Below are positions 23,139 through 42,027 of a stretch of DNA of 64,000 nucleotides, piece after piece (position 1 is the stretch's first letter; each line of letters begins with the position of its first letter). Made by a program: the position numbers and the translations under genes. Origin of the DNA: a virus (lineage: Duplodnaviria > Heunggongvirae > Uroviricota > Caudoviricetes); IMG/VR virus record IMGVR_UViG_2832576359_000003, positions 26,348-90,347 of that record; one strand, given 5' to 3'. The notes below the pieces were generated by a model that worked only from the letters and a program-made list of their open reading frames with translations, made no database searches and was not told where the DNA came from.

Positions 23139-23534
23139 ATGCTCGTCCAGTTCGACCTGTTCGGAGCAGATGATCCGTCCGACGAGCAGCCTGCCGACGG
23201 CAAGCCTTTGCGCAAATCGCGGGGCGCGAGCGGATGGCGTCTTGCCGATCATTGCTGTCGATACTGCTTCGGCCGCGTGCTCGAGCAAGTTGCCAAGGGC
23301 GTCGTGATTGAGGTTCGATGCGCCGAGTGCGGGCAGCGCGCGGCCGGCGGGGCGGAGCTGCTCTGCTGCTGCGGCGCCGACTGCGGCGAACTCGGCCAAT
23401 TGCTCGTGTGCGTGAAGAACCCGTGCGTCACGCCTGAGGTCCCCCACGAAATTCTCGTGCGCGAACGGCGCCGGCCGGAAAAGACGGAGCGCGACGCCGC
23501 GCCGATCCGCCCGGTCAAGATCTCTGGTTTCTGA
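23139..23534 (+). CDS. Hypothetical Cys-rich protein
   Basis: 131 aa with CCRYC, CAEC and CCCGADCG clusters. Confidence 0.35.
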   Translation: MLVQFDLFGADDPSDEQPADGKPLRKSRGASGWRLADHCCRYCFGRVLEQVAKGVVIEVRCAECGQRAAGGAELLCCCGADCGELGQLLVCVKNPCVTPEVPHEILVRERRRPEKTERDAAPIRPVKISGF

Positions 23535-23699
23535 ATTCTTCCTTAATCGAAAATAAATTCTGCGTTAAACGCATATTTTCGAGGAATGGGGATAGAATCC
23601 TTCCTGCGTTCGGTGCAGCAATGGCCGGAACGAATCTCTCGGTCGGTCGTGACAAGAGACTCGGTTTTATCGGGTCTCGTGTTCGTACTTACGGAGAGG

Positions 23700-23996
23700 A
23701 TGGAAGTGAGGAAGAAAGAATTTGTCGCCGCCGTCGCTGCGGCCTCGTCGCTTACCGCCGCGCAGGTTTCCCGCGCGCTGAAAGCGCTCGAGGAGGTCTC
23801 GGCCAATCACATCAAGGATTTCGGATCGGTGCAGGTCCCCGGGCTTGTGACGATCAAGCGCATGCCGGTCGAGGAACGTGTGCGGCAAAAGCCCAGCACC
23901 CGTGAATCGTTCGTGGCGCCGGCCTCGGTGCTCGTGAAAGCGAAGCCCGTACCGCGCTTCAGCAAGCGTATCAAGGCTGAGAACGTACCTGCTTGA
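23700..23996 (+). CDS. HU/IHF-family DNA-binding protein
   Basis: MEVRKKEFVAAVAAASSLTAAQVSRALKALEEV...VQVPGLVTIKRMPVEERVRQKP shows the HU fold pattern. Start chosen at the internal Met of the longer ORF. Confidence 0.6.
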   Translation: MEVRKKEFVAAVAAASSLTAAQVSRALKALEEVSANHIKDFGSVQVPGLVTIKRMPVEERVRQKPSTRESFVAPASVLVKAKPVPRFSKRIKAENVPA

Positions 23997-24307
23997 TGCG
24001 TGACGGCCGCCAAGCCGGCAGTGGCGGCAGTAACGCCGGCAGATGCGTACGCGGCACGGGCGGCTAGGCCCTCCGGGATTCGACACGCGCAAGCGTGTGC
24101 GGCGGGGCGCATCGGACACCGGGAAAGACTGGGCAACTGATCAATTTTGCGGGGTAGGGAATGTCGAGCGTGTCGTGGTCGCCTCTTGCATGGCTCCGGG
24201 CTCTGTTCCGGTTTATCGCGCGTCGCGGCGACGGCTCGCAAGCATCTCCCGCCTCGTTGGCGTTTCAATTCAACCTGCCTGACGGCAACCTTTTAAGGGG
24301 TACGACG

Positions 24308-24880
24308 ATGGATCTGCAACTCAAAGACGACGCACAAGCGCAACAGTATTCGGTGGTCCTGAAGGACAAGGCCGGCAACGTCGCGGCGGCAACGGGCGAG
24401 CTGACGGTGTCGGTGTCGGATTCGACGGTGGTTACCGCGACGCTGTCGGCCGATGGTTCGACGGTCGCGATCGCGCCGGGCAAGATCGGTTCGGCTGTCG
24501 TTACGGTGTCGGACGCGGCAGACGAACTGTCGGCGTCGATCAACGTCACGGTGACCGCTGGCACGCCGGCTTCGATCGAACTGGACCCGGTGGCGGCCGA
24601 CACGTCGACCGCGTCGAGCACGGACGCTTCGACCACGGCGGCGAGCACGTCGACGGATGCAACGAGCACGGCCTCGACCGCCGATACCGCGTCGTCGACG
24701 GATGCCACGACGGCGCCGGCTGCTGGTACCGATTCGAGCGCCGATGCAACGGACGCGTCGTCGGCCGATGCGTCGACCGCCACGGATGCGTCGACGGATA
24801 GCGCCGCCTCAACCTCGGATGCAACGACGGACGCGGCCGCGGCCGCCGACGAGACCGCTGCCGACGCGACGGCGCAGTAA
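24308..24880 (+). CDS. Ig-like domain protein with Ser/Thr/Asp/Ala-rich low-complexity tail
   Basis: N-terminal beta-rich stretch (TVSVSDSTVVTATLSADGSTVAIAPGKIGSAVVTVSD) then about 100 aa of STDA-rich sequence. Confidence 0.4.
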   Translation: MDLQLKDDAQAQQYSVVLKDKAGNVAAATGELTVSVSDSTVVTATLSADGSTVAIAPGKIGSAVVTVSDAADELSASINVTVTAGTPASIELDPVAADTSTASSTDASTTAASTSTDATSTASTADTASSTDATTAPAAGTDSSADATDASSADASTATDASTDSAASTSDATTDAAAAADETAADATAQ

Positions 24881-25028
24881 AGCGGTGAAGGGAAGGCGCT
24901 CGCACGCGCGGGCGTCTTCGTTTTAAGAAGATTTGAATTGCGTTTTACGCAGAATTGTCTATGATGGCTGCATTGCATGGCGGATGAGTTGTCTGCAATG
25001 TGTATAGCTGTGTAGCAGTGTGGATATA

Positions 25029-25103
25029 CGCGGGCTTGGCCGATCGGTTAGGCGCCAGCTTCCCAAGCTGGTAATAGGCGAGTTCGATTCTCGCAGCCCG
25101 CTC
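25029..25103 (+). tRNA. tRNA-Gly (anticodon CCC), slightly noncanonical D-stem and 6-nt variable loop
   Basis: Acceptor GCGGGCT/AGCCCGC, anticodon arm CCAGC-TTCCCAA-GCTGG, T-arm GCGAG-TTCGATT-CTCGC, 3' TCCA. Confidence 0.6.
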
Positions 25104-25258
25104 CAGTATTAGTGCTTCCCGCTCGGTTGGATCGAGTGCTTGGCCCCCGGTCGGGACTCAGGGGTGCCCCTCAAGCGCCGAGGAATCGAAGAGGCCATGA
25201 CCGGCCGCTAGCAGCGCCTCGAAATAATCGTCCGCTGGCCCCGTAGGGCCAACGATTT

Positions 25259-25335
25259 GGCAGGGTGGGGAAGTTGGTCATCCCGATGGGCTCATAACCC
25301 GTAGATCGCTGGTTCGAGTCCAGCCCCTGCAACCA
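25259..25335 (+). tRNA. tRNA-Met-like (anticodon CAT) with G1-A72 mismatch
   Basis: Anticodon arm ATGGG-CTCATAA-CCCGT, T-arm GCTGG-TTCGAGT-CCAGC, encoded ACCA end. First acceptor pair mismatched. Confidence 0.5.
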
Positions 25336-25523
25336 AACTGATGGGTGGCGCAACCTCCCTGAACCGGTGACCTAAAAGTTAGGGAACTGCGCGGAGCAAC
25401 GACGGTTGCGAGTGTTCAGAAATACGGGTGTAACAGTGGTTGCTCGGGGCCGGTGACGTACACCGGCGCTGTACCCGATATGCGCATGCGATGTGTGTGC
25501 ATATCAGGTGCAGTAAGCGGTAT

Positions 25524-25600
25524 GTCGCGTTGGACTTCTGGTTGAGGTCAGCATCCTTTCAAGGTGCGTAGGTCGGGTTCGAATCCCACACGCGACACCA
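25524..25600 (+). tRNA. tRNA-like gene (possible anticodon TTC), imperfect T-stem
   Basis: 7-bp acceptor GTCGCGT/ACGCGAC with encoded ACCA. Hairpin GCATC-CTTTCAA-GGTGC. GGGTTCGAATCCC T-loop with a mismatched stem. Confidence 0.35.
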
Positions 25601-25604
25601 GTTT

Positions 25605-25683
25605 CGCTGGGTAGCTCAAGCGGTAGAGCGTTCTCTCTCCAGAGAGGGGAAGGTTGGTGGTTCAAGTCCATCCCTGGCGGCCA
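25605..25683 (+). tRNA. tRNA-like gene, anticodon arm irregular
   Basis: Canonical D-arm TAGCTCAAGCGGTAGAGC and T-arm GGTGG-TTCAAGT-CCATC. Acceptor has two G-U pairs. There are 3-4 extra nt around the anticodon arm, so the anticodon is ambiguous. Confidence 0.35.
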
Positions 25684-25915
25684 GCGGTTCCTTGTTGTGC
25701 TTCGGTGCGGTGCCAGCCATAACATCGGCTGGGTGGAGGGTCGGGGCCGCTACCCCGACCCCTCATTTACCCATCGAAGAATGTGCATGAATTGCAACTA
25801 ACGCCCAAGCATGCTCGTCTCTCGGCGAGCGCTTCGCGGTGGTTGCGCAATGGTTGGGTGGCCGGGGCGATATCCCTTTGTGTCCGCGCGCAAACCGCGC
25901 CTCGGCTGCTCAAAC

Positions 25916-26001
25916 CCTCTGGTCTGGATTTGCTCGCTGACGTTCTCTAAGGACCCGCTCGTTCGCTGGAGCGTCGGAGATAGAGTCCAGACCAGAGGGT
26001 G
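25916..26001. ncRNA. Structured element: 14-bp perfect inverted repeat stem-loop
   Basis: CCCTCTGGTCTGGA at 25916 and TCCAGACCAGAGGG at 25988 flank a 58-nt loop that has internal pairing potential. Lies between tRNA-like genes. Confidence 0.3.
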
Positions 26002-26019
26002 AGGGGCCGCACCCTAGCA

Positions 26020-26119
26020 GCAGCCGTAGCTCAGTCAGGTAGAGCACCCCGTCGAGGGGGAGACTGGAATTCCAGGCACGCGGCGCCGTGTGGCACGGGT
26101 TCAAATCCCGTCGGCTGCT
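26020..26119 (+). tRNA. Long tRNA-like element (about 100 nt) with extended 11-bp terminal stem and insertion
   Basis: D-arm GTAGCTCAGTCAGGTAGAGC and T-arm ACGGG-TTCAAAT-CCCGT. Terminal stem AGCAGCAGCCG/CGGCTGCTGCT. About 45-nt insert containing the palindrome CTGGAATTCCAG. Class II or intron-like, anticodon unassigned. Confidence 0.3.
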
Positions 26120-26556
26120 GCTAGGGCGACAAGGGGCCTCGCGCCCTGACAGCAGAGTCTGCCGAGAACGTCGCGCGCGCGGCGCCGAGGCGAACGTCGA
26201 TGGTGTGGCCGCATCGGTAGGCGGGATCCGGGCTCTGCTGTGAGGGTGGAAGGTACGGCGGCTTCAAAAATGTGACCTCCGGTGTGCGGGTTCGAGTCCC
26301 GATCGCTGGCCGAGACTGAAGTTGGTAGACGCAGACGAAATAGCCATGTGCGAAACGTCGGAGCACGGCTGGTGTGCAGTTGGAACGCACACCCGAGGTC
26401 ACCCTCATCGAACTGCGCTTGCATCGCAGTCCACCAGTTGGCAGCGTCGGGAGACGCCCCCCGTCAGCACGAGTGCTGCGGTCTGTGTCTGATCCTATCG
26501 GGTCCATACCGCAGTAGTTTTGCATTGGTCTCCTACGGCTTCCCCGGTCGAAGGAT

Positions 26557-26590
26557 TAAAGCCCCGAATTTCGGGGCTTTTTTTTATGCT
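26557..26590. terminator. Bidirectional rho-independent terminator
   Basis: AAAGCCCCGAAatttCGGGGCTTTTTTTTTAT. Confidence 0.7.
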
Positions 26591-26793
26591 GCAGCGGTCT
26601 TGCGCGCGCGAGGCGGATAGATCCGCTTGATGCGGATGCCGGCGGCGCGCCGCGCGGCCGCGATCGTCCGATAATCCGGATTCTTGTACATCGCCTGGGG
26701 CGTGAGCCCGGCCAGGCGCGCGGCGCGGTATCCAGTGCAGCCCCCGCGCACGAGCTCGAGCGCGGTGATCATGCGATCGCTGATCGTCTTCAT
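26584..26793 (-). CDS. Small HTH DNA-binding protein
   Basis: ITALELVRGGCTGYRAARLAGLTPQAMYKN is HTH-like. Last gene of the leftward accessory block. Confidence 0.4.
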   Translation of the reverse strand: MKTISDRMITALELVRGGCTGYRAARLAGLTPQAMYKNPDYRTIAAARRAAGIRIKRIYPPRARKTAAA

Positions 26794-26800
26794 TGCGGTC

Positions 26801-27379
26801 CTATAGATGCGGGGTAAAGCAGATCGGCAGCCGATTATCGGTGCCCTTGGTCAGCGGCATGGTCGCCGGCAGGTTGAAGTTCGCGTCGAATGCCCACCAC
26901 AGCTTGTAACCATACTTCGCGCCGGCCGCGTCTGTATACGCGAAATAGCGGCCGTCGATCGTGTGCGCCTTCAGCAGGGTGAGCGTCGCGCCGTCGTGCT
27001 CGAGCGTGTCGATCACCCACTCCGTCGGGTCGTACGCGATGCCGAGCGGCCAATAGCAAAAGCCATATGCCGGGTTGCGCCACAGCCAGCGTACGCGCAG
27101 CACATACAGGTTGAAGCCCGTCGGCGTGCCCGTGCCGCTGTAGTACCAGCCGGTGGCGTTCAGGATCGACTGCCAGCGCGTCAGCGTGGTCGGCACGACG
27201 AAATAGAGGCCTTGCCAGCCGGCGTCGATCGGTGCGTCTTCCGTCTCGAACCATACGAGCCAATTCGGGAGATAGCCGTTCGACTGCACGAACAACGCGA
27301 GCCCCGGCGCGAGGAGGCACGCGAGTCCCGTGAAAATCAGATTGAGCAGCGTCGCGCCGGCGTAGCGAAGATATTTCAT
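26801..27379 (-). CDS. Hypothetical membrane protein (Trp/Tyr-rich)
   Basis: N-terminal TM (ATLLNLIFTGLACLLAPGLALFV). Start placed at MKYLRYAG. Confidence 0.4.
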   Translation of the reverse strand: MKYLRYAGATLLNLIFTGLACLLAPGLALFVQSNGYLPNWLVWFETEDAPIDAGWQGLYFVVPTTLTRWQSILNATGWYYSGTGTPTGFNLYVLRVRWLWRNPAYGFCYWPLGIAYDPTEWVIDTLEHDGATLTLLKAHTIDGRYFAYTDAAGAKYGYKLWWAFDANFNLPATMPLTKGTDNRLPICFTPHL

Positions 27380-27429
27380 GGTGAGGTCCGATATCGAAGG
27401 CGGCACGTCGCCGCACGTCCATCGTGTCG

Positions 27430-27765
27430 TCACGCCTCAGCCGATGAAACCGGCGCTCGGCGCGTGCGCAACCATTCCTCAGCATTGGCCGGGCTCCCGA
27501 GCAAGCCGGTCGCGCGGCGCCGCGCGTTCATGGCGCCACATTGGCGCCACGTGATCTCGACGGCACCCGCGGCGATCGCGGCCGCGCGCTTCGACAACGC
27601 GATGTCGTAGTGGCTGCCGCTGGTCTTCTCTGGCGACTGCCACCACCGGCGAGCGACGCCGATCTGCGCGGCCATCGCGTGCAGCTCGGCGTCCGTGTCG
27701 GCGATCATGTGGCACATGATCATGCGGCCGAACTTCGCGCGCATGTCGTCGACGTAGACGGTCAT
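27430..27765 (-). CDS. DUF4031-like protein
   Basis: MTVYVDDMRAKFGRMIMCHMIADTDAELHAMAAQIGV...SHYDIAL fits the DUF4031 pattern. Confidence 0.45.
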   Translation of the reverse strand: MTVYVDDMRAKFGRMIMCHMIADTDAELHAMAAQIGVARRWWQSPEKTSGSHYDIALSKRAAAIAAGAVEITWRQCGAMNARRRATGLLGSPANAEEWLRTRRAPVSSAEA

Positions 27766-28868
27766 GGCAGCACCGAGTCGACGGACAGATCGGGATGCGG
27801 AAATCCATCGTGCGTCACACCATCGAGCAAACGGCCGGCCGCGATCTTGCCGACGCGCGCGCTCATGGCGCCGTCGTCGAACGTGTGCCACGCGGGGTTT
27901 TGCGGGCCTGTGGGGGCTCCCTCGGCGAACGATAGGGTCAAGGTGTCACCGTCGCGCTCGGCGGGCATCCACTCGCCCCATTGCTTGAACAGGAACGGAA
28001 CGCCGGCCGCCGCGCATTGGTCGCGCAGCGCGCGGGCCCAATCGCGATGCATAGGCCGCGCGTGCGCGCCGCTCTCACCGCCGACGATGACCCAATCGAT
28101 CAGCTTCTTCTCGCTGTCGAAGATGTAGCCTGCGTCGCTCTCGAAGGATCGATGGCTCCCGCACTTCGGGCACGAGGGCTTTGCAGATTGATCGTCTGCA
28201 CCGCATGCGCTGCAGCGATCTGCGGCCCCGAATGGCTCGCCGCACGATCCGCATCCATCCGGGCCGGCGTCGTTATAGCTTCCGTGGAAACTGCAGTCTG
28301 CGCAGGTATACGGATCAAGCCATTTCAGAAGATCGATGGCCCCGAGCATCGGCTCGATCGAAAGGAAGCGCACGGGCGCCGGCGTCGCGATCAGCTTCGG
28401 GATGTCGCGATCGGCCTCTTCCTGATTGCATATCGTCGCGCCGAGCCAGACGTTTTCGGGCAGCCATCCCGGGATCTGCGACACCATCATCGGAACGTTG
28501 CCGATGCGCTTCGTCAGCAGCAGCCAATCGAGGTTAGGCGTGTCGCGGATGAGCACGAACAAGTCGGCGCGCCACTGCGGATCGACGGCGTTGTCAAATA
28601 CGTCGGCGAGCGAAGCACAGAAGACGCGCCGCCGGCGCCCGTGCTCGGCGAAGAACGCCTCATGCTGGCGGTTCCACTTCTCCGGTTGCTTCCATGATGC
28701 CGCCGACGTGTGGCGACGTTCAGCGCGGGCACCCCATGTGACCCCGAGCGCGCGCGCCGGCGTGCTGACTTCCGCGTAGCAGTGGTCGCACGCGGGCGAG
28801 ACCTTCGTGCATCCGATCCACGGATTGAAGGTCGCGTCAGTCCATTCGATTTTGCTGGTTTCGGCCAT
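27762..28868 (-). CDS. Phage Gp37/Gp68-family protein (DUF5131)
   Basis: N-terminal TSKIEWTDATFNPWIGCTKVSPACDHCYA signature. Several CxxC clusters in the middle. Confidence 0.55.
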   Translation of the reverse strand: MAETSKIEWTDATFNPWIGCTKVSPACDHCYAEVSTPARALGVTWGARAERRHTSAASWKQPEKWNRQHEAFFAEHGRRRRVFCASLADVFDNAVDPQWRADLFVLIRDTPNLDWLLLTKRIGNVPMMVSQIPGWLPENVWLGATICNQEEADRDIPKLIATPAPVRFLSIEPMLGAIDLLKWLDPYTCADCSFHGSYNDAGPDGCGSCGEPFGAADRCSACGADDQSAKPSCPKCGSHRSFESDAGYIFDSEKKLIDWVIVGGESGAHARPMHRDWARALRDQCAAAGVPFLFKQWGEWMPAERDGDTLTLSFAEGAPTGPQNPAWHTFDDGAMSARVGKIAAGRLLDGVTHDGFPHPDLSVDSVLP

Positions 28869-28877
28869 GCTTGTTCA

Positions 28878-29384
28878 CTAGTCCATGTGTTGGTTCGGAA
28901 AGGCCGCGCACGGGCCCTCGTGTCCACTCTTGCGCTGGCATTGCCATCCTGCTTCGGCCTTGTCGCACGAGCCGTCGTCGACCTCGATCTGCGTGTTTGT
29001 CTGTCGAGCGCGCGCGACGGCAGCAAGTTCCTCGATGACGGCCGAGGCCGCGGTGAAGTCATTCATGCGGCCAGAGTGATCGCGCGCCCATTCCGGCACG
29101 CCGTCGCGCCACTGACCGTGCGCGCGCAGATGGAGCCATTCGGCGTAGCGCGGGGTATCGCTCGCCACATCATCGGCTTCAGGGGAGGCGCGCCGGTTCC
29201 ACGCCGCGGTAAGACCGTCGAGCGTCGAATGGATCATTCCGCACTCACAGCCAGGACATGCGATCGTGAAGCTGCCTGGATGTGGCGGCAGGTCGGACCA
29301 GTGGTGCGGGTGTGGCGGATGTTCTTCGATCGTTTGCTCGGACCCGCAGAACGGGCATCGCAACAGGTTCCGTTGAGTGGTCAT
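28878..29384 (-). CDS. Zn-ribbon protein, possibly Lar-like restriction alleviation
   Basis: N-terminal LLRCPFCGSEQ and a later CPGCECG cluster. Confidence 0.3.
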   Translation of the reverse strand: MTTQRNLLRCPFCGSEQTIEEHPPHPHHWSDLPPHPGSFTIACPGCECGMIHSTLDGLTAAWNRRASPEADDVASDTPRYAEWLHLRAHGQWRDGVPEWARDHSGRMNDFTAASAVIEELAAVARARQTNTQIEVDDGSCDKAEAGWQCQRKSGHEGPCAAFPNQHMD

Positions 29385-29556
29385 GTCGGCTCCCCGGCGG
29401 CGCGGTCTGCCGCATCCTTCAGCGTGTGGTAAACCTCCTGCTTATGAAGCAAGTAGCGGGAGGCTTTCTTGAGTTCTAGCGCGGCATCTTGATATCTGCG
29501 CTCGGCCGCACGCAGATCACTCTCGGCCTCACGCAGCATGCGTTCATTGAAGTCTT

Positions 29557-31344
29557 TCACGATTCACCCCCGGCGGCGCGGTCGATGGCGAGCATACGGT
29601 CCATCTGTGCCCGGACGAGCTTCGCGGCGTCTCGATTCTTGGCCGTGATGATGATGTAGTCGCCGTCTGTCCCGACGCTTTTAACCGGCGCATCGAAGCC
29701 GCGCTTAGGCGTAACGCTCGCAGGTTGAGCGGCGAGGATGTGCGTGACTACTGCGCCGTCGTGATTCGCCGCGCACTGCAATGCGTCGGCCTCGTTGATG
29801 AATACGCGATGCCAAGTCTGTTCGGCTTCGCCGGGCCATTCGACGTACCACGCCTCTTTCTGATCGCTCGTCAGCCCCACAGCGGCAGCGGGCTCGCTCG
29901 GCGCAGCACGCAGTTCAGCCGACACGAGTGCATGAAGCACGTCCACGACATTCTCGCGGCTGGTTCGATTTTTGGCTGCGTCGCTCATGTGTTCGTAGAC
30001 GTGATCCGGTAACGGCGCGCAAGGCGTATCGGTGCCTGTTGCATTGCAGGTTGGGCAGGTGGGCGCTTCCGTAGATAGGGCGGCGCGGGCCTGCCAGCCG
30101 TCCCAATGAGAATTTGTCCCGGGCCACGCATAGCCGTCCTTTTCTCGAGTCAGGAGAAATTCCAAACCGGCGTATCGCGTAACAGCCCATGCCTCGAATG
30201 CGCCACGCTCGCATGCAGACTGATCGACCATATCGGTTTCCTCGGGCTCGCTCGGCGCAGCGGGGGCGACGGTTGAAGCGGCGACGGATTTTGCATGCTG
30301 GCGAATATGGGCGCCCGCAATAATCGACTCATACGCGTAGTCTCCCCACTGACCGGGACATCCCTTCCTGTTCAGCTTGGTGAGCACGTAGTCCGCGATG
30401 AACGTCGCGTCGGCGTCGCTGGGCGCTGCACTCGCCACTACGGGGGCGCCAGTAGCTTGTTTGCGCGAAGGCGGATAGCCGGGCTTCATGCCGCGAATGA
30501 CGCGCGCATCCTCCCGCATGCCCCAGTTCTGTTCCATCTCGACCGCAGCGGCCTCAAGCAGATTATTGAGGTCGGCCGCCTGCGCATCTTCCGCCACTAC
30601 GGGGGCGACGGGAGCGGCGTCTGTGTCAACGCTTTCGCCGAGCGCGCGGCGGATCGCGCTGAATCCTGCATCGGTTGCGGCCTCGTCATCGTCCTCGACC
30701 GCATCCATGTCGTTCAGCGTATCGCCCAGATGGTTCATCGCGGCGTAGATGGCAAGCAGGTCCGCGCGCGATACGAGCACGGCGTCGGCCGGCCCCGTTG
30801 CATCTGCCCCCCGCTCCCCCTCAACAGCGGCGCACTCGGCCGGTATATCAGGGCTTGCGTTGGTCAAACTCGAAACAAGTCGAACATCGATGTGCGAGGC
30901 GTATCTGGCATTGCACATATGCAGATGAACGGCGTGGGCGTCCCATCCAATCGGGCTCACGACCCGCTTGAACCACTTCCCGCGACCGTCATACACGTCC
31001 CACAGCAGTCCAACGCCGTCATCCCACGTCGCCAAGGGCTTTTCATCTGCCCCCTCAACAGCATCGAGCCGCTCGCCCATTTCAGATAGCAGCTGCTCGA
31101 CGTCGGGCACGTTACGCGCATAGACCTCCTGTCCGCTTCCGTCGCCTGGCACGACACGCAGCAGGATTTTTCGCACGTCGCAATCGGCCGGGATCTGGGA
31201 TTTAACAGCATGGAGCAGGTCGCTAATTACCTCGCCGGCGTTGTTCGGCGTATCACGCGAGGCGATCACTCGGCACAATTCTCCGATTGTCCGGCCGCCG
31301 TAGTAGATTTTGTCGGTCATGTCTTTATCTCGCTTGTGCCCCAT
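29557..31344 (-). CDS. Large hypothetical protein (595 aa)
   Basis: Long high-GC3 ORF. CPTCNATGTDTPC and HLHMCNARYASH motifs. No family recognised. Confidence 0.45.
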   Translation of the reverse strand: MGHKRDKDMTDKIYYGGRTIGELCRVIASRDTPNNAGEVISDLLHAVKSQIPADCDVRKILLRVVPGDGSGQEVYARNVPDVEQLLSEMGERLDAVEGADEKPLATWDDGVGLLWDVYDGRGKWFKRVVSPIGWDAHAVHLHMCNARYASHIDVRLVSSLTNASPDIPAECAAVEGERGADATGPADAVLVSRADLLAIYAAMNHLGDTLNDMDAVEDDDEAATDAGFSAIRRALGESVDTDAAPVAPVVAEDAQAADLNNLLEAAAVEMEQNWGMREDARVIRGMKPGYPPSRKQATGAPVVASAAPSDADATFIADYVLTKLNRKGCPGQWGDYAYESIIAGAHIRQHAKSVAASTVAPAAPSEPEETDMVDQSACERGAFEAWAVTRYAGLEFLLTREKDGYAWPGTNSHWDGWQARAALSTEAPTCPTCNATGTDTPCAPLPDHVYEHMSDAAKNRTSRENVVDVLHALVSAELRAAPSEPAAAVGLTSDQKEAWYVEWPGEAEQTWHRVFINEADALQCAANHDGAVVTHILAAQPASVTPKRGFDAPVKSVGTDGDYIIITAKNRDAAKLVRAQMDRMLAIDRAAGGES

Positions 31345-31528
31345 TTAACGCCGTGCACGACAAATTTGACTTCGTTGATCTTGATAAGGTGCAGGTCACG
31401 ATTCATACCGCGCAGCTTGGTTATGCCTTCGCGCACGGCTTGTTGGGCGAGGGCGTCGGTATTCCCTTTATCGCCCCACGTGTCGACGGTTAATTCAACC
31501 TCGGCAACGATTCGAACGGTAGTGCTCA
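31317..31528 (-). CDS. Small hypothetical protein (70 aa)
   Basis: Internal-Met start MSTTVRIVAEV of the longer ORF. Overlaps the upstream gene by 28 nt. Confidence 0.3.
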
Positions 31529-31531
31529 TGT

Positions 31532-34939: not shown

Positions 34940-34950
34940 GGTGGTGGGTG

Positions 34951-35187
34951 TCAGTGTTGGCGGATCCAGAGGCCTGCGACCATCTGAAGGCGCCCGGAGC
35001 GCCGCTCGCGGAAAATGAGGCGGTCGACGATGCGGTTTGCGGTGCCGTCATGGCGCGCGAATCCGTAGCGCTCCGCGCTGTCGACGATGTCGGCCATGCG
35101 GAATTGCTCGAGCGGCACGCGCTTGAGAATCGTGTCGAGCACCTCGTCCATCTGCTCGGGCTCGAGCTGCGAGTTCAGGTTCATCAT
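34951..35187 (-). CDS. Small hypothetical protein (78 aa)
   Basis: Short ORF between the SPFH gene and the 258-aa gene. Confidence 0.3.
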   Translation of the reverse strand: MMNLNSQLEPEQMDEVLDTILKRVPLEQFRMADIVDSAERYGFARHDGTANRIVDRLIFRERRSGRLQMVAGLWIRQH

Positions 35188-35233
35188 TCGGTGTTCCGTC
35201 AGGCTTCGATCGTCGGTTGTCCAGGGCTGCTGA

Positions 35234-36094
35234 CTACTTCGTAGCGCCGACCTGGATCATCGGGATCGCGTTGCCCATCATGTAGGTCGGGTAGTGGCCG
35301 TCCCACTTCTCGATCTTCATCTTCTCGATCAACGACGGGTTCGCCGCGAGCGACTGGCCGAGGATGTCGTTGGCCTTCGCGGTGTTTTGCGCGACCTGCA
35401 GCGCGGCTTCGCTCTCGACGACGCGCTTTTGCGCTTCCCACTTCGTTTGCGCGATCTCGTTCTCGACGCGAAGGGCGTTTTGCTGCGCGGTGATCTTTGC
35501 CTCGATCGCGTCGTTGAACTGCTTGCTGAATTGGAAGTCGACGATGTTCACCGCGCTGACGTTGACGCCGATGTTCTTGAAGCGATTCAGCAGGGCCTCG
35601 CGCACTTCCTGGCTGACCTGATCGCGGCGCTGAATCAGATCGGTTGCCTCGTAGCGCGCTGCGACTGCTTTGACGGTGTCGTGCACAGCGGGATCCATGA
35701 TCGTCGGCCACGGGTCGCTGCCAAGATTGGCGTAAATCGCCGCCGCGGCGGCCGGCAGAATGTTGAAGTTGACCGCGACCTTCATGTCGACCTGCTGGAG
35801 ATCCTTCGACGAGCCGGCGACATCCGATTCGGACTTGTGAACGCCGACATAGACGGTGTGCATCGTCTGCGAGATCGGCATGCGGAAATGGATGCCAGGC
35901 GCGTATGTTTTTTCAGACGGCGCGCCGAATGTGGTCATCACTCCCACGTAGCCGGCCGGAACAGTCGCGACGGGCATGAGGGCCCAAAGTGCGCCCAGGG
36001 CGACCACTGATAAAACGCAAATGATGGCGAGACGAAGCTGGCTCATGCTGCTCGTGCTGGATTCGTCGCGGTTAGGTTGGTTGGTCGATACCAT
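35234..36094 (-). CDS. SPFH / band-7 (prohibitin/HflC-like) membrane protein
   Basis: N-terminal TM then the SPFH core (GYVGVMTTFGAPSEKTYAPGIHFRMPISQTMHTV...VNFNI) and a coiled-coil tail. Confidence 0.65.
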   Translation of the reverse strand: MVSTNQPNRDESSTSSMSQLRLAIICVLSVVALGALWALMPVATVPAGYVGVMTTFGAPSEKTYAPGIHFRMPISQTMHTVYVGVHKSESDVAGSSKDLQQVDMKVAVNFNILPAAAAAIYANLGSDPWPTIMDPAVHDTVKAVAARYEATDLIQRRDQVSQEVREALLNRFKNIGVNVSAVNIVDFQFSKQFNDAIEAKITAQQNALRVENEIAQTKWEAQKRVVESEAALQVAQNTAKANDILGQSLAANPSLIEKMKIEKWDGHYPTYMMGNAIPMIQVGATK

Positions 36095-36154
36095 CGGGGT
36101 TTCTCCGGCTTTAGTTGAGTGATTGCGCCGCGACGTGCGGCGCTTGGGATTCGG

Positions 36155-38125
36155 TTAAGCGGCCGCGGCAGCACGCAACTCGTGCGCGAAATTAGCGCGG
36201 ATGATTGCGGCGGCGACCGGCGGGCAGACGCTGTTGCCGATCATGCGGACCTGAGCCGACTTGGAAAGGCGCTTGCCGTTGTGCTCGGGGTCGAGCACGT
36301 ACGAATCGGGGAAGCCCTGGGCACGCGCGAGCTCGCGCGGCGTGAGCATGCGCATGCCGATATCGACGATGGCGTAGTCCTCGCCGTGGATCGTCACGAG
36401 ACCGAGCCGGTCTTTCGTCGGGATCGTGTGCATCGGGTCGCGCAGATCCTGATGCTGGCCGCCTTCGCTGTAGTACTTGATCAGGAAGGCGCGCACCTCG
36501 GCGTGATGCAGTCCACCGGCGCTTACCGTGTGGAGCGGCTCGGCGACCGGTTGCGCGCCGCCGTTGTTGCGCAGCTTCACGAGGTGCGACACGGCGATCG
36601 CCGAATCGGCCTTCGCGGTGATTGTGGCAGCGGGCTCGCTCGCGTCGCGCGGCCGAGACTGACCAGCGCGGCCGCCACAGCCGACGATCTGAGCGGTGAC
36701 GAGCGCGTGGTGATCCTGCGTCGTGACCGTGCTCATCGGGTATGCGAGGTCCGCGCCGGGCGTTTCATTACCGCCGTAGTGCTTCGCGAGGAAGGCGGAC
36801 ACGAGGGCGTGCTTCGCGCCGCCCGCGACGACGGTGCCGAGTGGCTTGTCGATACCCGGCGCGCGCGGCGCCTGCCCGGCGCGCTCGCCGTATCCCGTCT
36901 GAATCAGCGTTGCGGCGACGATCTGCTGCTGGCCGCCGCTCGCAGTGATCGTGCTCAGCGGCGCTTTTGCGGATCGACCGGCCTTAACGCCCACGCGTTC
37001 CTTGTTGTGCTGCGCGAGGAATGCAGTAACGAGCGCTTGCTCGCTGCGGTTCGCGCCCGTGACGGTCGCGAGCGGTGCGTCGGCGCGCGCGCCGCGGTCT
37101 GAGCCCTGGTGCGTGACGTGCATCAAGGTCGGCGCGACCATCGCAAGGCTTCCACCGCGCGGATACGCGGTGATCGTGCGCAATGGTTCGCTCCCGCTGT
37201 GGACCGTGTCGCGGCCGTTGTAGTGCGCAATCGGAACGATGAAAGGGTCGGCGCTGTTCACGACGAACTTCATGATGCCGCGCGCGATACGCCGCAGCGT
37301 CGCATCCTTGAGCGGGCGATCGCGCTCGAAGATCGAGGGGCACGGGATCGACCAGTCGATGCATTCGGCCGCGGTGCGGTACGGCGCGAGCGCGCCGCGC
37401 GCGACGGCGTCCGAGTTCGGCGCGCCGTGCGTGGGCGCGGGCCAAACGATCGGAAGCCCATCGCGGCGCGCGAACAGATAGAGGCGCTTGCGAATCGTCG
37501 GCGTGCCGAAGTCGCACGCGCGCAGCACGCGCCATTCGACCTTGTATCCGAGCCCCGCGTAGAGTCGCTCCATCGGGAAGTCGGCGCCGAGCGTCTCGAA
37601 GATCTCGGGCACGTCCGGGTGCTCAGGCGACAGGCCGGACGAGAGCGCATCGACGAACGCGCGGAACGTGCGGCCTTTCTCGGCCTTGATCGGTTGGCCG
37701 TGCTCGTCGACCGGGCCCCAATCCTGGAACTCCTCGACGTTTTCGAGCGCGAGGCAGCGCGGCACCTGGAAGGTCCCCCACTTCAGGGCGATCCAGGCCA
37801 GCCCGCGGATCTTCTGGTCGCGCGGCTTGCCGCCCTTCGCCTTCGAGTGATGCTTGCAATCGGGGCTGAACCAGGCAAGCCCGATCGGCATCTGGTTCGT
37901 GATGAAGCCCGGGTGCACCGCAAAGACGTCTTCGCGATAGTGCCGCGTCGTCGGGTGGTTGGCCGCGTGCATCGCGAGCGCTTCGCCGTCGTGGTTGATG
38001 GCGATATCGACCGGGCGCCCGAAGGCCATCTCAATGCCCGTGCTCGCGCCGCCGCCGCCGGCGAAGTTATCCACGATGAGTTCGTGCCCCAAGTCGAGCT
38101 CGAAACTGATCTCGTCGCGCTTCAT
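36155..38125 (-). CDS. DNA cytosine-5 methyltransferase with 8 tandem ~35-aa repeats in the variable region
   Basis: Motif I DNFAGGGG, PC-like SPDCKHHS, ENV(EEF) motif, C-terminal MIGNSVCPPVAAAI. Repeat unit PLxTITAxG..HALVTAFLAKHYG occurs 8 times between roughly aa 300 and 580. Confidence 0.7.
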   Translation of the reverse strand: MKRDEISFELDLGHELIVDNFAGGGGASTGIEMAFGRPVDIAINHDGEALAMHAANHPTTRHYREDVFAVHPGFITNQMPIGLAWFSPDCKHHSKAKGGKPRDQKIRGLAWIALKWGTFQVPRCLALENVEEFQDWGPVDEHGQPIKAEKGRTFRAFVDALSSGLSPEHPDVPEIFETLGADFPMERLYAGLGYKVEWRVLRACDFGTPTIRKRLYLFARRDGLPIVWPAPTHGAPNSDAVARGALAPYRTAAECIDWSIPCPSIFERDRPLKDATLRRIARGIMKFVVNSADPFIVPIAHYNGRDTVHSGSEPLRTITAYPRGGSLAMVAPTLMHVTHQGSDRGARADAPLATVTGANRSEQALVTAFLAQHNKERVGVKAGRSAKAPLSTITASGGQQQIVAATLIQTGYGERAGQAPRAPGIDKPLGTVVAGGAKHALVSAFLAKHYGGNETPGADLAYPMSTVTTQDHHALVTAQIVGCGGRAGQSRPRDASEPAATITAKADSAIAVSHLVKLRNNGGAQPVAEPLHTVSAGGLHHAEVRAFLIKYYSEGGQHQDLRDPMHTIPTKDRLGLVTIHGEDYAIVDIGMRMLTPRELARAQGFPDSYVLDPEHNGKRLSKSAQVRMIGNSVCPPVAAAIIRANFAHELRAAAAA

Positions 38126-38289
38126 TTATTCGATTCCTTCGATGAAATTGCTTGTTGAGCGACCAGCGCATCCTGCTCGACGCGCTGCCGGCGCCCGAGC
38201 GCGACGTGCTCGTCGAACTCTCGGCGGCTGATGCGGTTGTCGACGAACACGCGCGTCGCGAGGCGCATATCGCCCTTGAAGGCGAACAT
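38122..38289 (-). CDS. Small hypothetical protein
   Basis: 55 aa from MFAFKGD with coding GC3 bias. Start uncertain. Confidence 0.25.
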   Translation of the reverse strand: MFAFKGDMRLATRVFVDNRISRREFDEHVALGRRQRVEQDALVAQQAISSKESNK

Positions 38290-38351
38290 GCGGATCTGGT
38301 CGAGCGCCGAGTCGCGCCCGCGATCGCGTCGGCCGAACTGCGGGGCGCGCG

Positions 38352-38573
38352 TCACGCGTGGCTCCGCGAGCAGCCGGAGCAGCGTGCGTCGCCGGGCGTG
38401 CCGCGCGCGTAGCCGCATTCCTTGCTCATCTGGACGGGCACGATCTCGATGACGGGCAGGCGCGTTTGCATGCGCCCGTGGTCCGCGAGCATCGTTTCCC
38501 ATCCGTTCTGCACGACGATCCTGTCGCGCGGCGCGGGGCGGTTCTGGCAGGCGTACGGGGCGATCGTGCTCAT
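38352..38573 (-). CDS. Small hypothetical protein (73 aa)
   Basis: MSTIAPYACQNRP..., strong GC3 bias. ATGA-coupled to the upstream gene. Confidence 0.3.
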   Translation of the reverse strand: MSTIAPYACQNRPAPRDRIVVQNGWETMLADHGRMQTRLPVIEIVPVQMSKECGYARGTPGDARCSGCSRSHA

Positions 38574-39211
38574 GCGAGGGTCTCCATCAAGCGGCGGAAC
38601 TGCGGCGACGGGTCGGTGCCGAGGCTCTTGAGGAGGATCGCGATCTCGTTCGCGAGCACGACGGTCGGCTCGGGCAGCGGGGTCCAGGCTTCCGGCTGCG
38701 GGCACTCGGCGACGTCCATCGCGTGCGTCACCGTTTCGGCGCTGATCGCGTGCTCGAAGTGCGTCGTCGCCGCGACGGCGAGCGATTCCGCGCTCGGATG
38801 CTTGGACGCCTCGCTGACGACCCAGAGGCAGAGCCGGTGGAATTCACGCGGCGTTAGTTCCTCCGCCGCCCTGGACGCGCTCGATACCGGTCCGGATGCC
38901 GCCGGCGTCGGGCTGCTCTTTGCTGTGAGGGTGGGTCGTTTCTCACTCATTTGCGCTGCTTTCTTCGTGGGTTCGGTGGATGGCGTCGCTGCTTCGGGCG
39001 CCGGGTTCTCGCGCAGGAAACGGCGCATGTGCATGGATGCGAGGTTGTCGCCGGCTGAGTCGCACTTGCCGGTCGCAATCGAAAACGAGCGCTCGACGCC
39101 GTTGGGTGCTCTCAGGACCGCGCACATGCGGTTGGATTCGCGCTGAACGCGCACGACCTCAAGGCCGGCGCGCTCCGCGAGGTGCTTTATGTCGCGTGCT
39201 CGGTTGGTCAT
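38570..39211 (-). CDS. Hypothetical protein (213 aa)
   Basis: Start at MTNRARDIKHLAE. The N-terminal extension of the long ORF is Arg/His-rich non-coding-like sequence and is rejected. Confidence 0.4.
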   Translation of the reverse strand: MTNRARDIKHLAERAGLEVVRVQRESNRMCAVLRAPNGVERSFSIATGKCDSAGDNLASMHMRRFLRENPAPEAATPSTEPTKKAAQMSEKRPTLTAKSSPTPAASGPVSSASRAAEELTPREFHRLCLWVVSEASKHPSAESLAVAATTHFEHAISAETVTHAMDVAECPQPEAWTPLPEPTVVLANEIAILLKSLGTDPSPQFRRLMETLA

Positions 39212-39510
39212 TTCACCGAATCGAGGATGGAGTCGATCTGCTGCATCGGACCGGTGAGGTCGCCGAGCGTGACGGTCGCCCCGGCGATCTGCTCGCGCAG
39301 CCCACGAAACGCGTGGATCAGGTCGGGCAGCTTCGTGTAGAGCGTCGCTTGCGCGAATGCATCCATCTGGCGCACGCGCGGGAATCGTCCGACCGTGATC
39401 GGTCCGTTGATGGTGTCGGCGACGACCGTGATGTCTGCCTCGGTCGTGCGTCCGATGCGATACGGGCCGGGGATGAGGCCCGCGACCTGGTCCTTTGCTT
39501 TGGGCGACAT
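39208..39510 (-). CDS. Hypothetical protein (100 aa)
   Basis: ORF overlapping its neighbours by 4 nt. Confidence 0.35.
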   Translation of the reverse strand: MSPKAKDQVAGLIPGPYRIGRTTEADITVVADTINGPITVGRFPRVRQMDAFAQATLYTKLPDLIHAFRGLREQIAGATVTLGDLTGPMQQIDSILDSVK

Positions 39511-39521
39511 CGTCGTGCTCC

Positions 39522-39872
39522 TCAGCGGGCGTGGGCAAAGGTGCGTTCGAAATCCGCCGTGCGGTGCTGCTCGATGCCCCCGAATGCCGACGGCTGCCGG
39601 CCGAGCGCCGGTGCCGCGTTGCGCGCGCCCTTCGCCGCGTGAGCAATGCGCTTGCTATCCCCCTTGGCTTGCTCAAGCGCCTCGTCGGCCTCGATCTCGG
39701 ACTGCAGGCGTGCAATACGGGCCTCGAGCATGGGCACGCTCGACCGGTAGAACTCGAGTGCGCACTTGTGCTCGACGAGGGTGAAGCGCGCCTCGTGCAG
39801 CTTGAATTTCGACTCGCTACGCGGATCCTTCATCGCGAAAGCCTTGGCAATGCGTTGGAGCAGCTTCTTCAT
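39522..39872 (-). CDS. Hypothetical protein (116 aa)
   Basis: Start at MKKLLQRIAKAF. Helical. Confidence 0.35.
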   Translation of the reverse strand: MKKLLQRIAKAFAMKDPRSESKFKLHEARFTLVEHKCALEFYRSSVPMLEARIARLQSEIEADEALEQAKGDSKRIAHAAKGARNAAPALGRQPSAFGGIEQHRTADFERTFAHAR

Positions 39873-39919
39873 GTCGTTACCTTCTTTGGGAGGGAAGGCC
39901 GCAACCCGCGGCCCGAGGG

Positions 39920-40180
39920 TCAAGCCGTGTGCGTTGCGTGAGCCGCGTGCTGATGCTCGATGTGCTGCGGAGCGCTCGGGGGCGTGAGGCGCGAAATCCC
40001 GAGGACAAAGGAGACGTACCAGATGGCGCCGCAGACCATGCCCGTGCCGAGCATGTAGACGAAGAGGCGCGGGGTCGAAATCGTGTTCTGAGAAGGGTCC
40101 GCGTGCTTGCGGCCCGGCTGATTCTTCTTTTTACGAAGAAATTCGCGCTTGTCTGCGAAGTCGCGTGCGATCGTGTTCAT
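39920..40180 (-). CDS. Small membrane protein (86 aa)
   Basis: One TM segment (LFVYMLGTGMVCGAIWYVSFVLGI). Confidence 0.3.
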   Translation of the reverse strand: MNTIARDFADKREFLRKKKNQPGRKHADPSQNTISTPRLFVYMLGTGMVCGAIWYVSFVLGISRLTPPSAPQHIEHQHAAHATHTA

Positions 40181-40199
40181 GAGCGTCTCCGGTCGCGAC

Positions 40200-40445
40200 T
40201 CAGCAGTACGTCAGGGGGGTGATCAGCTTGATGCGGCCCGCTTCCTGGTGTGCGAGGAAGGACTCTGTCAGGGTCGCTACGTTCTCTGCGAATTCCGCGG
40301 CGTAGCGCTTGTGGCCTGCCTGGATGCAGCTTTCCATGCATTCGATGGTGTTGCCGGTGCGCTTCGCGACGGCGGTCAGCGCAGCCCTTCGGATCTCGTG
40401 CGAGGCCCTTCGGATCTCTACCAGCTTCGTCCCCTGTGTCTCCAT
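40200..40445 (-). CDS. Small hypothetical protein (81 aa), first gene of the leftward block
   Basis: Internal-Met start METQGTKLVEIRRASHEIRRAALTAV of the longer ORF. Divergent from the terminase-small-like gene. Confidence 0.3.
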   Translation of the reverse strand: METQGTKLVEIRRASHEIRRAALTAVAKRTGNTIECMESCIQAGHKRYAAEFAENVATLTESFLAHQEAGRIKLITPLTYC

Positions 40446-40677
40446 CTCTGCCTCGCTTGTGCGTTGAAGTGAGGCAATTGTGAAACTTACGAATCTGCAC
40501 GTCAAGCAGAATGATGCGTTATTCGCAGATTTACGTGATACGCTTGCGCCATATTCTTCGAATAAAGCAAGTAATCGCGCAAAAGCGCCGCCCTCCTGTT
40601 GACGACGTAAACGTCTCGGGGCGTTGTCTTCGTTGTCGTGACGCGATGCTTGAGCACAACGTCTCTCGGGGCCGGTA

Positions 40678-41319
40678 GTGGCGCGCGTATCAATCAGCAA
40701 AGAGCAATGGCGTATCGCGCGGATCCAGTGGGAGGGTGATCCGCTGGTGTCGTACGCCGATATCGCCGAACAACTCACGACTTCGCGCCAGGCGGTCAAG
40801 CAGCACGCCGATCGCAACGGCTGGCAAAAGAAGATCGACGCCGCCGCGGTCGCTGAGAAAGCACACATCGCAGCGGATGCGAAAGTTTCATATGTGCCCG
40901 TGGGAACGCCGGAGCAAGCGCCCTCCGTTTACGTAGAAACCGCTGAAAACGTCGATCTGTCGCGCGCGCCGATGCGTCCCGCGCTGCCGACGCCGGTACC
41001 TGCAGGCACTGACTCGCAAACGGCATCGGTCATGGTCGAGCAGGGCGCCGTCGACATGCGTGCACAGGTGCTCGCGCAGCACCGGACCGAATGGAAGGCC
41101 GTACGCAGCAAGCTCTACAAGCTCTTGAAGGCGGGCGACTCGATGCCCGATGGGGATACCGCGCGCGCGGTAAAGGCCGTCGCCGAGTCGGTGAAGGTGC
41201 TGCAGGAAGGGGAGCGGAAGGCCTACGGCCTGGAGGCGCCCGGCGACCCGCGCAATCCCGGTGCGGGCCGGCCGGCGATCGTGATCAATCGCACGAAGGG
41301 GAAGACGATTGGTCGCTGA
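40678..41319 (+). CDS. Terminase small-subunit-like protein (gpP-like / Terminase_5-type N-terminus)
   Basis: N-terminal ISKEQWRIARIQWEGDPLVSYADIAEQLTTSRQAVKQHADRNGWQKK resembles the HTH start of gpP-like terminase ATPase-subunit proteins. Confidence 0.4.
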   Translation: MARVSISKEQWRIARIQWEGDPLVSYADIAEQLTTSRQAVKQHADRNGWQKKIDAAAVAEKAHIAADAKVSYVPVGTPEQAPSVYVETAENVDLSRAPMRPALPTPVPAGTDSQTASVMVEQGAVDMRAQVLAQHRTEWKAVRSKLYKLLKAGDSMPDGDTARAVKAVAESVKVLQEGERKAYGLEAPGDPRNPGAGRPAIVINRTKGKTIGR

Positions 41320-41320
41320 T

Positions 41321-41896
41321 CTATGCCGTGGCGCGCGCGCGCATGATGGTCTGGCGGCTCGTGCCGAAGTCGCGGGCCACGATGCCGATGGGCGTGCCCT
41401 CGGCCAGCCGCTCGCGCACCTGGACCTTCTGCGCCTCGGTGAGGCTTGCGCGGCGCCCGAGCTTCTTTCCCTCTTTGCGCGCCCGGTCGAGCCCCGCGTG
41501 CGTGCGCTCGATCAACAGGTCGCGCTCGAACTCTGCAACGGCCGTGATGACGCTCATCGTCATCTTGCCCGCGGCGCTCGTGAGGTCCACGCCGCCCAGG
41601 GCGAGGCAATGCACGCGCACGCCGAGGCTCGCGAGGTTCTCGACGGTCTGCCGCACGTCCATCGCGTTGCGGCCCAGCCGGTCCAGCTTCGTCACGATCA
41701 GCACGTCGCCTTCCTCGAGGCGGTCGAGCAGCTTGGCGAAGCCCGGCCGCTCGCTGGCGTTGACGCTGCCGCTGATGGTTTCGGCCACGATGCGGCGCTG
41801 GTCGACCGCGAAGCCGTGGGATTGGACCTCGGTGACCTGGTTGGCGGTCGTTTGCTCGGCGGTGCTGACCCGCGCGTAAAGGAAGGTTCGGCTCAT
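41321..41896 (-). CDS. Serine recombinase (resolvase/invertase family)
   Basis: [11 protein letters not shown] catalytic Ser block, resolvase core, C-terminal HTH ([17 protein letters not shown]). About 190 aa. Confidence 0.8.
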
Positions 41897-42027
41897 TTTC
41901 TTCGATTTCTTCACATTGACGAAATGGGTGTACGAATTCTGCCTTATACGCAGAATTACGCAACCCTATTTTTTGGACACCTTTCTTCGGGCCGTCCAGA
42001 TTCGTCCGTTATCGGCGGGGGTGCTCT

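Follow-up and report, generated by a model that had tools for sequence, protein, structure and literature searches.

A stretch of 64,000 nucleotides from a Caudoviricetes virus (the window; positions 26,348 to 90,347 of IMG/VR record IMGVR_UViG_2832576359_000003) carries a 23-bp inverted repeat in at least seven control regions, which span 12.7 to 42 kb of the window, and the question raised by these repeats is which protein they serve. We assign the window to a lambdoid phage-plasmid of Pararobbsia silviterrae; an XRE regulator of this species, encoded on a 90,347-bp contig, has the same amino acid sequence as the CI of the window (100% identity). We argue below that the motif is probably the operator of the phage's own lambdoid CI/Cro immunity switch, lying over core promoter elements and copied beyond the usual left and right operators (OL and OR).

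The motif is dyad-symmetric, with the TGC and GCA cores 7 bp apart in all strong sites. The core TGC-N7-GCA is embedded in the fuller consensus aaTTCTGCgt-N3-acGCAGAAtt, in which the spacer positions flanking the core favor G-T and A-C. An initial annotation of the window had pointed to such a recurrent repeat, and the repeat is real: 23-mers resembling AATTCTGC-N7-GCAGAATT begin at 41935, 40491, 40510, 23556, and 24934. Two copies were described there as near-perfect, which is correct for 41935, a perfect repeat, but not for 40491-40513, whose symmetry is limited to TCTGC-N7-GCAGA. Two copies described as partial do exist, their positions having to be shifted by 4-5 bp, and a supposed half-site at 40524 does contain the motif but turns out to be the right arm of a full site, 40510-40532. 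The proposed set of at least four promoter regions can be extended to at least seven, including two strong sites that had not been listed, 18509-18531 and 19495-19517. The sites are denoted here as S1 to S7 from left to right, and their sequences and scores are collected in Table 1.

Beside the primary sites, a G-to-T variant of the motif, TTCTTC-N7-GAAGAA, recurs: it abuts S3 and S4, it precedes the ATG of cro, and it is found at 40120 and 40552. In the related locus L004 (L followed by a number denotes the loci of other phages), a variant of the same type also adjoins the site that precedes the terminase small subunit gene. The arrangement in the window is a single strong site with weaker TTCTTC-type neighbors at OR, OL, S3, and S4, and a pair at S5/S6, the members of which share 4 bp and have their centers 19 bp apart. 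The variants may be auxiliary low-affinity operators or sites preferred by Cro.

The recurrence is far above expectation when the full site is considered. A scan with the full pattern, allowing up to three mismatches, gives 6 matches compared to 0.16 expected, and none of 100 shuffles reaches 6. The dyad TCTGC-N7-GCAGA occurs three times (0.08 expected), while TCTGC and GCAGA separated by 0-6 or 8-11 bp do not occur in the window at all. The relaxed form TCTKC-N7-GMAGA is found at 6 sites (0.28 expected), and TCTTC-N7-GAAGA at 2 (0.03 expected). We have also built a position matrix from 15 sites, all of them from other phages, and scanned the window with it, the expectations being taken from first-order, composition-matched shuffles of the window's own noncoding DNA. 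The noncoding share of the window is 12%, at an overall GC content of 63%, and in this DNA the matrix finds 10 hits of at least 13 bits against 0.13 expected and 6 hits of at least 20 bits against 0.004 expected. The ranking by the matrix is S7, S3, S2, S4, S6, 40120, S5, 19749, 19526, and S1. Taken by itself, the half-site CGCAGAATT shows no enrichment (23 matches, 18 expected), and although TTCTGC-N7-GCAGAA stands high in an unbiased list of exact dyads (p = 2e-5), it is lost once the 86,016 tests are corrected for. What carries the significance is therefore the scanning with degenerate full sites, together with the positions of the sites and the comparison between phages.

Concerning the placement, S2 is located between the divergent cI and cro genes and S1 at the predicted leftward early promoter beyond cI, i.e., in the classical OR and OL positions. 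A promoter scan tool reported only the leftward promoter at S5, and the other promoters considered here are our own consensus matches. The spacer of S5 forms the -35 element of this promoter (TTGACG-N17-CACAAT, 40505-40477), which is predicted to drive orf82 and the accessory block. S2 covers the spacer and the -10 element of the predicted cro promoter (TTGCGC at 19488-19493, N17, CACAAT at 19511-19516), while S1 covers the -10 element (TAGTGT, 18534-18529) and the +1 position of the predicted leftward exonuclease/RecT promoter, TTGATG-N17-TAGTGT. At the predicted tRNA promoter (TTGCGT at 24938-24943, N16, TATGAT at 24960-24965), S4 overlaps the -35 element and the spacer. S7 overlaps the spacer and the -10 element of the predicted promoter of the invertase gene, which is read leftward from TTGCGT (41963-41958) through N16/17 to (C)AGAAT(T), the true start of the invertase being the ATG at 41876. 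A -10-like TAGAAT (23593-23598) implies a start site downstream of S3, at a distance of about 38 bp. Since every strong site lies over a predicted -35, spacer, -10, or +1 position, a dimer bound to them would exclude RNA polymerase, that is, it would repress by steric hindrance.

The sites are also conserved in other phages. Relatives found via the terminase large subunit (L005, L076, L003, L004, and L077) keep the noncoding DNA around S5-S7. In L005 (4863) and L076 (3113), both arms of S5, the -35 element in its spacer, and the -10 element are conserved, and equivalents of S6 are found in L076 (3132) and L005 (4881), with the CGCAGA arm kept in both. L076 has the right arm of S7 and the adjoining -35 element ACGCAA unchanged, and L005 retains them in part. 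A pair of sites also precedes the terminase small subunit gene in L003 and in L004. Another near-perfect site, AAATCTGCgtgacgcGCAGAATT, lies at 12510-12532 of L003, between late (structural) genes of this related viral contig, and has no counterpart in the window.

Homologues of the window CI are rare, with 4 found among 5.8 billion proteins; CI peptide scans of viral contigs remained empty until an alignment was used. The phages with a homologous CI (L096/L097, L098/L105, L099, and L126; 38-51% identity) have the same gene order, which at L096/L097, L098, and L099 runs cro, cI, exonuclease, RecT as in the window, and motif sites are found in their cro-cI gap as well as past the cI terminator. 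In the alignment of the cro-cI intergenic region, the operator (S2) is the best-conserved block. The leftward early promoters of L098 and L096 share the promoter-overlap architecture of S4. Because L105 and L004 come from one 74-kb contig, this phage has both the switch sites and the terminase-proximal sites. In L126, a 92-kb Paraburkholderia phage-plasmid, sites are present at both OR and OL, on the downstream side of cro, ahead of parA, and within the accessory block; the parA site, at 2787, is at the same place as the candidate upstream of the window's parA. Sites just downstream of cro are likewise found in L096, L105, L126, and L127.

Homologues of Cro, on the other hand, are abundant, 790 being found at E 1e-8 or better, including those of Fels-1, ST64B, and some Stx2 phages. 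Eight other phages with a homologous Cro and varied CI partners all have TGC-N7-GCA (TGT-N7-ACA in Fels-1) in the cI-cro gap, and the leftward region, examined in 6 of these phages, contains sites in every case. Placement like that of S2 at OR is seen in L096, L098, L099, L126, L127, L128, L130, and L131, and leftward sites equivalent to S1 in the first six of these. L127, the prophage to which L077 belongs, has three sites at OR, two at OL, and three downstream of cro. In L128 the Cro is 61% identical but the CI is a different protein, similar to the window CI over the helix-turn-helix (HTH) region only (37% over 60 aa) and carrying the GDSM motif of a canonical S24 peptidase; three plus two sites reading TTCTGC-N7-GCAGAA are nevertheless present. 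Cultured gammaproteobacterial phages with a Cro of 45-56% identity show the same palindrome geometry in their cI-cro gaps. As controls, essentially no sites were found in five phages related only via RecT, nor in 18 loci (195 kb) with distant HTH proteins, the only kind that the metagenome scan with the CI alignment returned. Palindromy, promoter overlap, OR/OL placement, and the cross-phage motif thus lend in silico support to the earlier suggestion that the repeat would be the operator of a phage-encoded dimeric regulator.

On the basis of these data, we propose that CI in the plasmid prophage, and Cro during lytic growth, would bind as dimers with one helix-turn-helix per half-site. A distance of about 11 bp, or about one helical turn, separates the conserved cores, so that both half-sites are on the same face of the DNA. 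Among the homologues compared, the recognition helix of CI, SLSKIE-G-Q, is invariant and that of Cro, NLSRIERG, is conserved; among solved structures, matches were found only for the generic XRE HTH domain of CI. In addition to OR and OL, the operator would have spread to the HU-like gene and the tRNA cluster, to both the divergent accessory/terminase-small region and the invertase/methyltransferase region, and probably to parA, and one repressor would in this way directly silence most transcription units of the plasmid prophage.

In a pairwise alignment with E. coli LexA, the window CI has Gly at the position of Ser119, Arg at Lys156, and Ala-Arg at Ala84-Gly85. In four aligned members of the CI family, the Ser119 column contains G, T, A, or E, and the Lys156 column contains Arg in all four. 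CI thus has no apparent catalytic Ser, catalytic Lys, or Ala-Gly cleavage site, which makes self-cleavage unlikely; the protein is probably not self-cleaving, and induction may need an antirepressor.

Table 1. Operator-type sites, genes, and comparison loci discussed in the text, with matrix scores in bits. Positions are those of the window except in the last three rows, which refer to the respective loci.
Feature	Positions	Strand	Description
TrfA-like initiator	10050-10949	-	
Arc/RHH-like small protein	11665-12084	-	
ParA	12081-12776	-	
Candidate site	12774-12796		CAATGTGCgtgaaatGCAACGTT; 13.1 bits; immediately upstream of parA
S1 (OL-type)	18509-18531		TATTCTGCgctggtgGCAGAACA; directly after cI terminator
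cI	18656-19420	-	XRE-type HTH and S24-like C-terminal domain (HTH_3/HTH_31 and Peptidase_S24-like); proposed operator-binding repressor
S2 (OR-type)	19495-19517		AAATCTGCccttcacGCACAATT; 26.4 bits; cI-cro divergent region, 130-bp gap
Second OR-region site	19526-19548		TTTTCTTCgataaaaGCAGATAG; 15.3 bits; between cro promoter -10 and cro ATG
cro	19551-19823	+	90-aa XRE-type HTH protein; proposed second protein on the same operators
Candidate site	19749-19771		TATCCTGAgcgatacGCAGATTT; 19.1 bits; 3' end of cro
Candidate site	20125-20155		AAAGTTGCctgccaaGCAGAACG; 13.0 bits; after terminator 20051-20080, upstream of replication gene; overlaps palindrome GCAGAACGTGTTCTGC
Auxiliary variant site	23534-23556		AATTCTTCcttaatcGAAAATAA; 13.4 bits; abuts S3, 22 bp offset
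S3	23556-23578		AATTCTGCgttaaacGCATATTT; 30.8 bits; upstream of HU-like gene (likely start 23700)
Auxiliary variant site	24912-24934		GCGTCTTCgttttaaGAAGATTT; 14.1 bits; abuts S4, 22 bp offset
S4	24934-24956		TGAATTGCgttttacGCAGAATT; 23.6 bits; upstream of tRNA cluster
Variant palindrome	40120-40142		GATTCTTCtttttacGAAGAAAT, TTCTTC-N7-GAAGAA; 21.3 bits; within 5' part of gene 39920-40180 (-)
orf82	40200-40445	-	81 aa; missed in first gene call, masked by overlapping ORFs (open reading frames); first gene of leftward accessory operon (predicted S5 promoter)
S5	40491-40513		GAATCTGCacgtcaaGCAGAATG; exact symmetry TCTGC-N7-GCAGA only
S6	40510-40532		AATGATGCgttattcGCAGATTT; 23.0 bits; terminase-small side of divergent region
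Weak auxiliary site	40552-40574		TATTCTTCgaataaaGCAAGTAA; 13.7 bits
S7	41935-41957		AATTCTGCcttatacGCAGAATT; perfect 8-7-8 inverted repeat; 30.9 bits; between invertase (-) and N6 methyltransferase (+) genes
L129 (Fels-1)	2374-2485		TGT-N7-ACA in cI-cro gap
L130 (Stx2a_WGPS2)	2353-2494		TGC-N7-GCA in cI-cro gap
L131 (Acinetobacter phage 4316)	2374-2494		TGC-N7-GCA in cI-cro gap

A number of points weigh against the assignment to the CI/Cro switch or weaken parts of it. The data do not separate CI from Cro as the binder, and OR and OL each have one strong site with weak ones rather than a clear triplet. All promoters except that of S5 are consensus matches of our own. The matrix test is only partly independent, because its training sites had been located by means of a pattern taken from the window itself. 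In L005 and L076, a -10 box coincides with the left arm of S7, which is degenerate there. Moreover, neither L096 nor L105/L004 has equivalents of S3, S4, and S7, so that these sites look like an expansion of the regulon specific to the lineage and are less well supported by conservation. Finally, the 69-aa HTH-like protein encoded at 26584 is also conserved in relatives.

The last point leads to the best-surviving alternative, namely that the repeats are operators of another phage regulator, for which the candidates are the 69-aa protein (26584-26793), a 67-aa XRE protein (60105-60308), and a 114-aa protein (52559-52903); CI and Cro would then use other, unrecognized operators. These small proteins had been named in the initial annotation next to CI and Cro, and it is the latter two that appear most likely to bind, the others being less likely. 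The relatives in which the protein at 26584 is conserved are L096 and L105, and the one at 52559 is conserved in L003, L004, and L005, all of which have sites upstream of the terminase small subunit gene; the single strong site in the window's OR region is also compatible with such a regulator. Against this, the motif tracks the Cro homologues over eight phages, including enterobacterial and Acinetobacter ones, although this argument is indirect. The cI-cro gap shows no alternative repeated palindrome, the motif being its most conserved block, and the proteins at 52559 and 26584 give no DNA-binding hit in Pfam or PHROG. None of these candidates follows the motif in the way that Cro and CI do, and we regard another phage regulator as unlikely.

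An even smaller probability is assigned to a host regulator recruited by the phage, such as LexA or another global repressor. The CTG...CAG palindromes superficially resemble SOS boxes, and a CI that apparently has no LexA-type catalytic residues would need another induction input. However, compared with CTGT-N8-ACAG the core CTGC-N7-GCAG has one base less, and a scan of the window for TACTGT-N8-ACAGTA gave no match, even with up to two mismatches allowed. The motif follows the phage Cro family across Burkholderiaceae, Enterobacteriaceae, and Acinetobacter hosts, which does not suggest a single host factor, and the host-flanking parts of L127 are free of the motif apart from the prophage switch.

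It is just as improbable that the repeats are core promoter elements, i.e., a CAGAAT/CACAAT -10 box read both ways, with no regulator site. At S2 and S7 the outer arm does coincide with a -10-like hexamer, and the left arm of S7, as it reads in L005 and L076, is closer to a -10 box (ATAATC) and further from a palindrome. Where the repeat lies with respect to the promoter, however, varies from the -35 element at S5, through the -35 element and spacer at S4, to downstream of the -10 element at S1, and most arms have no usable -35 element at 16-18 bp upstream. Reading the arms as -10 boxes of bidirectional promoters was dropped because the -35 spacing is inconsistent at S1, S3, S4, S5, and S6. 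A single hexamer, furthermore, cannot account for the conservation of both arms and of the fixed 7-bp separation.

The least probable readings, of which we expect none to hold, are recombination sites of the serine invertase, dispersed partition sites of ParA, and RNA hairpins or terminators: S5/S6 and S7 do flank a 1.45-kb segment that contains the invertase gene and that of the terminase small subunit, the phage encodes ParA and an Arc-like protein and has a candidate site beside parA, and S7 and S1 fold into stable hairpins, but the S5 and S7 spacers differ (ACGTCAA vs CTTATAC), the motif is kept where no invertase gene is adjacent (L003, L004, and L096) and at a great distance from such genes, the majority of sites are located on promoters at OR and OL, and the substitutions in L005 and L076 are not compensatory. 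Crossover sites of the hix/gix type were rejected, the 23-bp sites having an odd length with a central base pair and no 2-bp crossover core, as were hairpins and terminators, with S2, S3, S4, and S5/S6 having no common hairpin and no site being followed by a T-run; an Rfam scan found only tRNAs.

The window has the lambdoid gene order. To the left of cI there is an operon of exonuclease, RecT, SbcC-like, and SSB genes, transcribed leftward, and to the right of cro there are an O-like replication gene, a RusA-like gene, the HU-like gene, and four or five tRNAs, followed by a long minus-strand block rich in methyltransferases. Next come the terminase small subunit gene (40678), the serine invertase gene on the minus strand, the N6 methyltransferase gene, and the terminase large subunit gene. 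The element is considered a phage-plasmid because TrfA, ParA, and an Arc-like protein are present, and the contigs of the relatives, at 89.8-92.9 kb, are similar in length to the 90,347-bp source contig, which points to a phage-plasmid family. No close cultured relative was found, a megablast of 38-46 kb against cultured phages giving nothing useful, and exact-protein look-ups with CI and with the terminase small subunit returned no record. For orf82, the third-position GC is 0.82 and the Shine-Dalgarno sequence is GAGG; L005 and L076 have weak homologues of it in syntenic position, and it gives no family hit.

Some further features of the window were noticed in the course of this work. GCAGAACGTGTTCTGC (20140-20155) is a tail-to-tail palindrome, with the operator half-site in the opposite arrangement, located past the strong terminator 20051-20080, and TCTGC-N17-GCAGA also begins at 20151. 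Next to parA, TATAC-containing repeats extend over 12816-12880, inside a "gene" (12816-13400) of low third-position GC; they comprise two copies of GCTATACGG and three of TATA-N4-TATA (p = 1e-6, dyad scan) and may be a centromere or iterons. The invertase gene is oddly placed between the terminase small and large subunit genes. The N6 methyltransferase gene to the right of S7 (42028-43278) is not at the syntenic position in L005 and L076, which have a TPR-protein gene or directly the terminase large subunit gene in its place, and from this comparison it looks like a moron insertion. As regards the tRNAs, Rfam reports one of 100 nt at 26020-26119 (+) that was not called by ARAGORN, and the tRNA-Glu called by ARAGORN at 25524-25600 (+) is missing from the Rfam list.

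It is instructive to compare the proposed CI/Cro operators with known systems. As in the OR/OL regions of lambda, 434, and P22, the sites are palindromes with half-sites one helical turn apart, one set lying between divergent cI and cro over the rightward promoter and a second at the leftward early promoter, and in the relatives L127 and L128 even the arrangement of three plus two tandem sites is found. In contrast to these regions, the window phage has extra copies at five or more promoters beyond the immunity region, and the S24-like domain of its CI apparently has no catalytic Ser, Lys, or Ala-Gly site. The 23-bp sequence with TGC-N7-GCA matches no characterized lambdoid operator known to us. 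The switches of Fels-1, ST64B, mEp460, and Stx2a_WGPS2 type, with a Cro of 45-50% identity, share with the window the Cro family and, between cI and cro, the site architecture, but differ in the flanking bases (about 5 kb around cro was inspected). We found no published operator mapping for phages of these types or for Acinetobacter phage 4316. Judged by placement and geometry, the sites most likely form a CI/Cro operator set of the lambdoid type, which as an element is nothing out of the ordinary and calls for no new kind of mechanism. The unusual aspect is the number of targets, which comprise OL, OR, the region downstream of cro, the HU-like gene, the tRNAs, the accessory/terminase and invertase/methylase regions, and probably parA.

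With respect to this number, the C1 repressor of phage P1, which has 22 dispersed operators in the form of asymmetric 17-mers, ATTGCTCTAATAAATTT (PMC8546580), offers the closer parallel. In both cases the prophage is a plasmid with one immunity repressor, the operators are scattered over accessory, DNA-modification, and late-control promoters, and the inactivation of the repressor probably does not proceed via RecA-mediated cleavage. The sites of the window differ in being palindromic 23-mers, which implies a dimeric XRE-type CI paired with Cro, unlike P1, and the repressor, with its HTH_3/HTH_31 and Peptidase_S24-like domains, is not of the C1 family. The resemblance to P1 is therefore functional only and not one of membership. 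The likeness to the stoperators of Cluster A mycobacteriophages is looser. These are also many copies of an immunity-repressor site spread across the phage genome, but they are asymmetric, 13-14 bp long, monomer-bound, orientation-dependent, and located inside transcription units, where they stop elongation (PMC9283540, PMC6550527), whereas the sites of the window are symmetric and lie at promoters or in intergenic DNA.

A more far-reaching proposal, which we put forward only tentatively and consider rather doubtful, is that in a phage-plasmid lineage of the Burkholderiaceae a lambdoid switch has been rewired to form a global regulon like that of P1, in which an apparently non-cleaving CI would gate many operons. 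The gated units would be the early operons, the packaging/late region, the methyltransferase-rich block, the tRNAs, the nucleoid protein gene, the invertase/methylase pair, and the partition operon. The TTCTTC-type variants abutting the primary sites would then set cooperativity or the preference for Cro against CI.

If it is true that one repressor controls at least seven promoters, including those of packaging and partition, the phage would represent a second, independently evolved case of the P1-like global-repressor design. The TGC-N7-GCA type of operator appears to be tied to the very large Cro family described above, which would be useful for predicting immunity groups from sequence. For the uncharacterized family of phage-plasmids of about 90 kb in Pararobbsia, Paraburkholderia, and related Burkholderiaceae, the set of sites provides a testable regulatory map.

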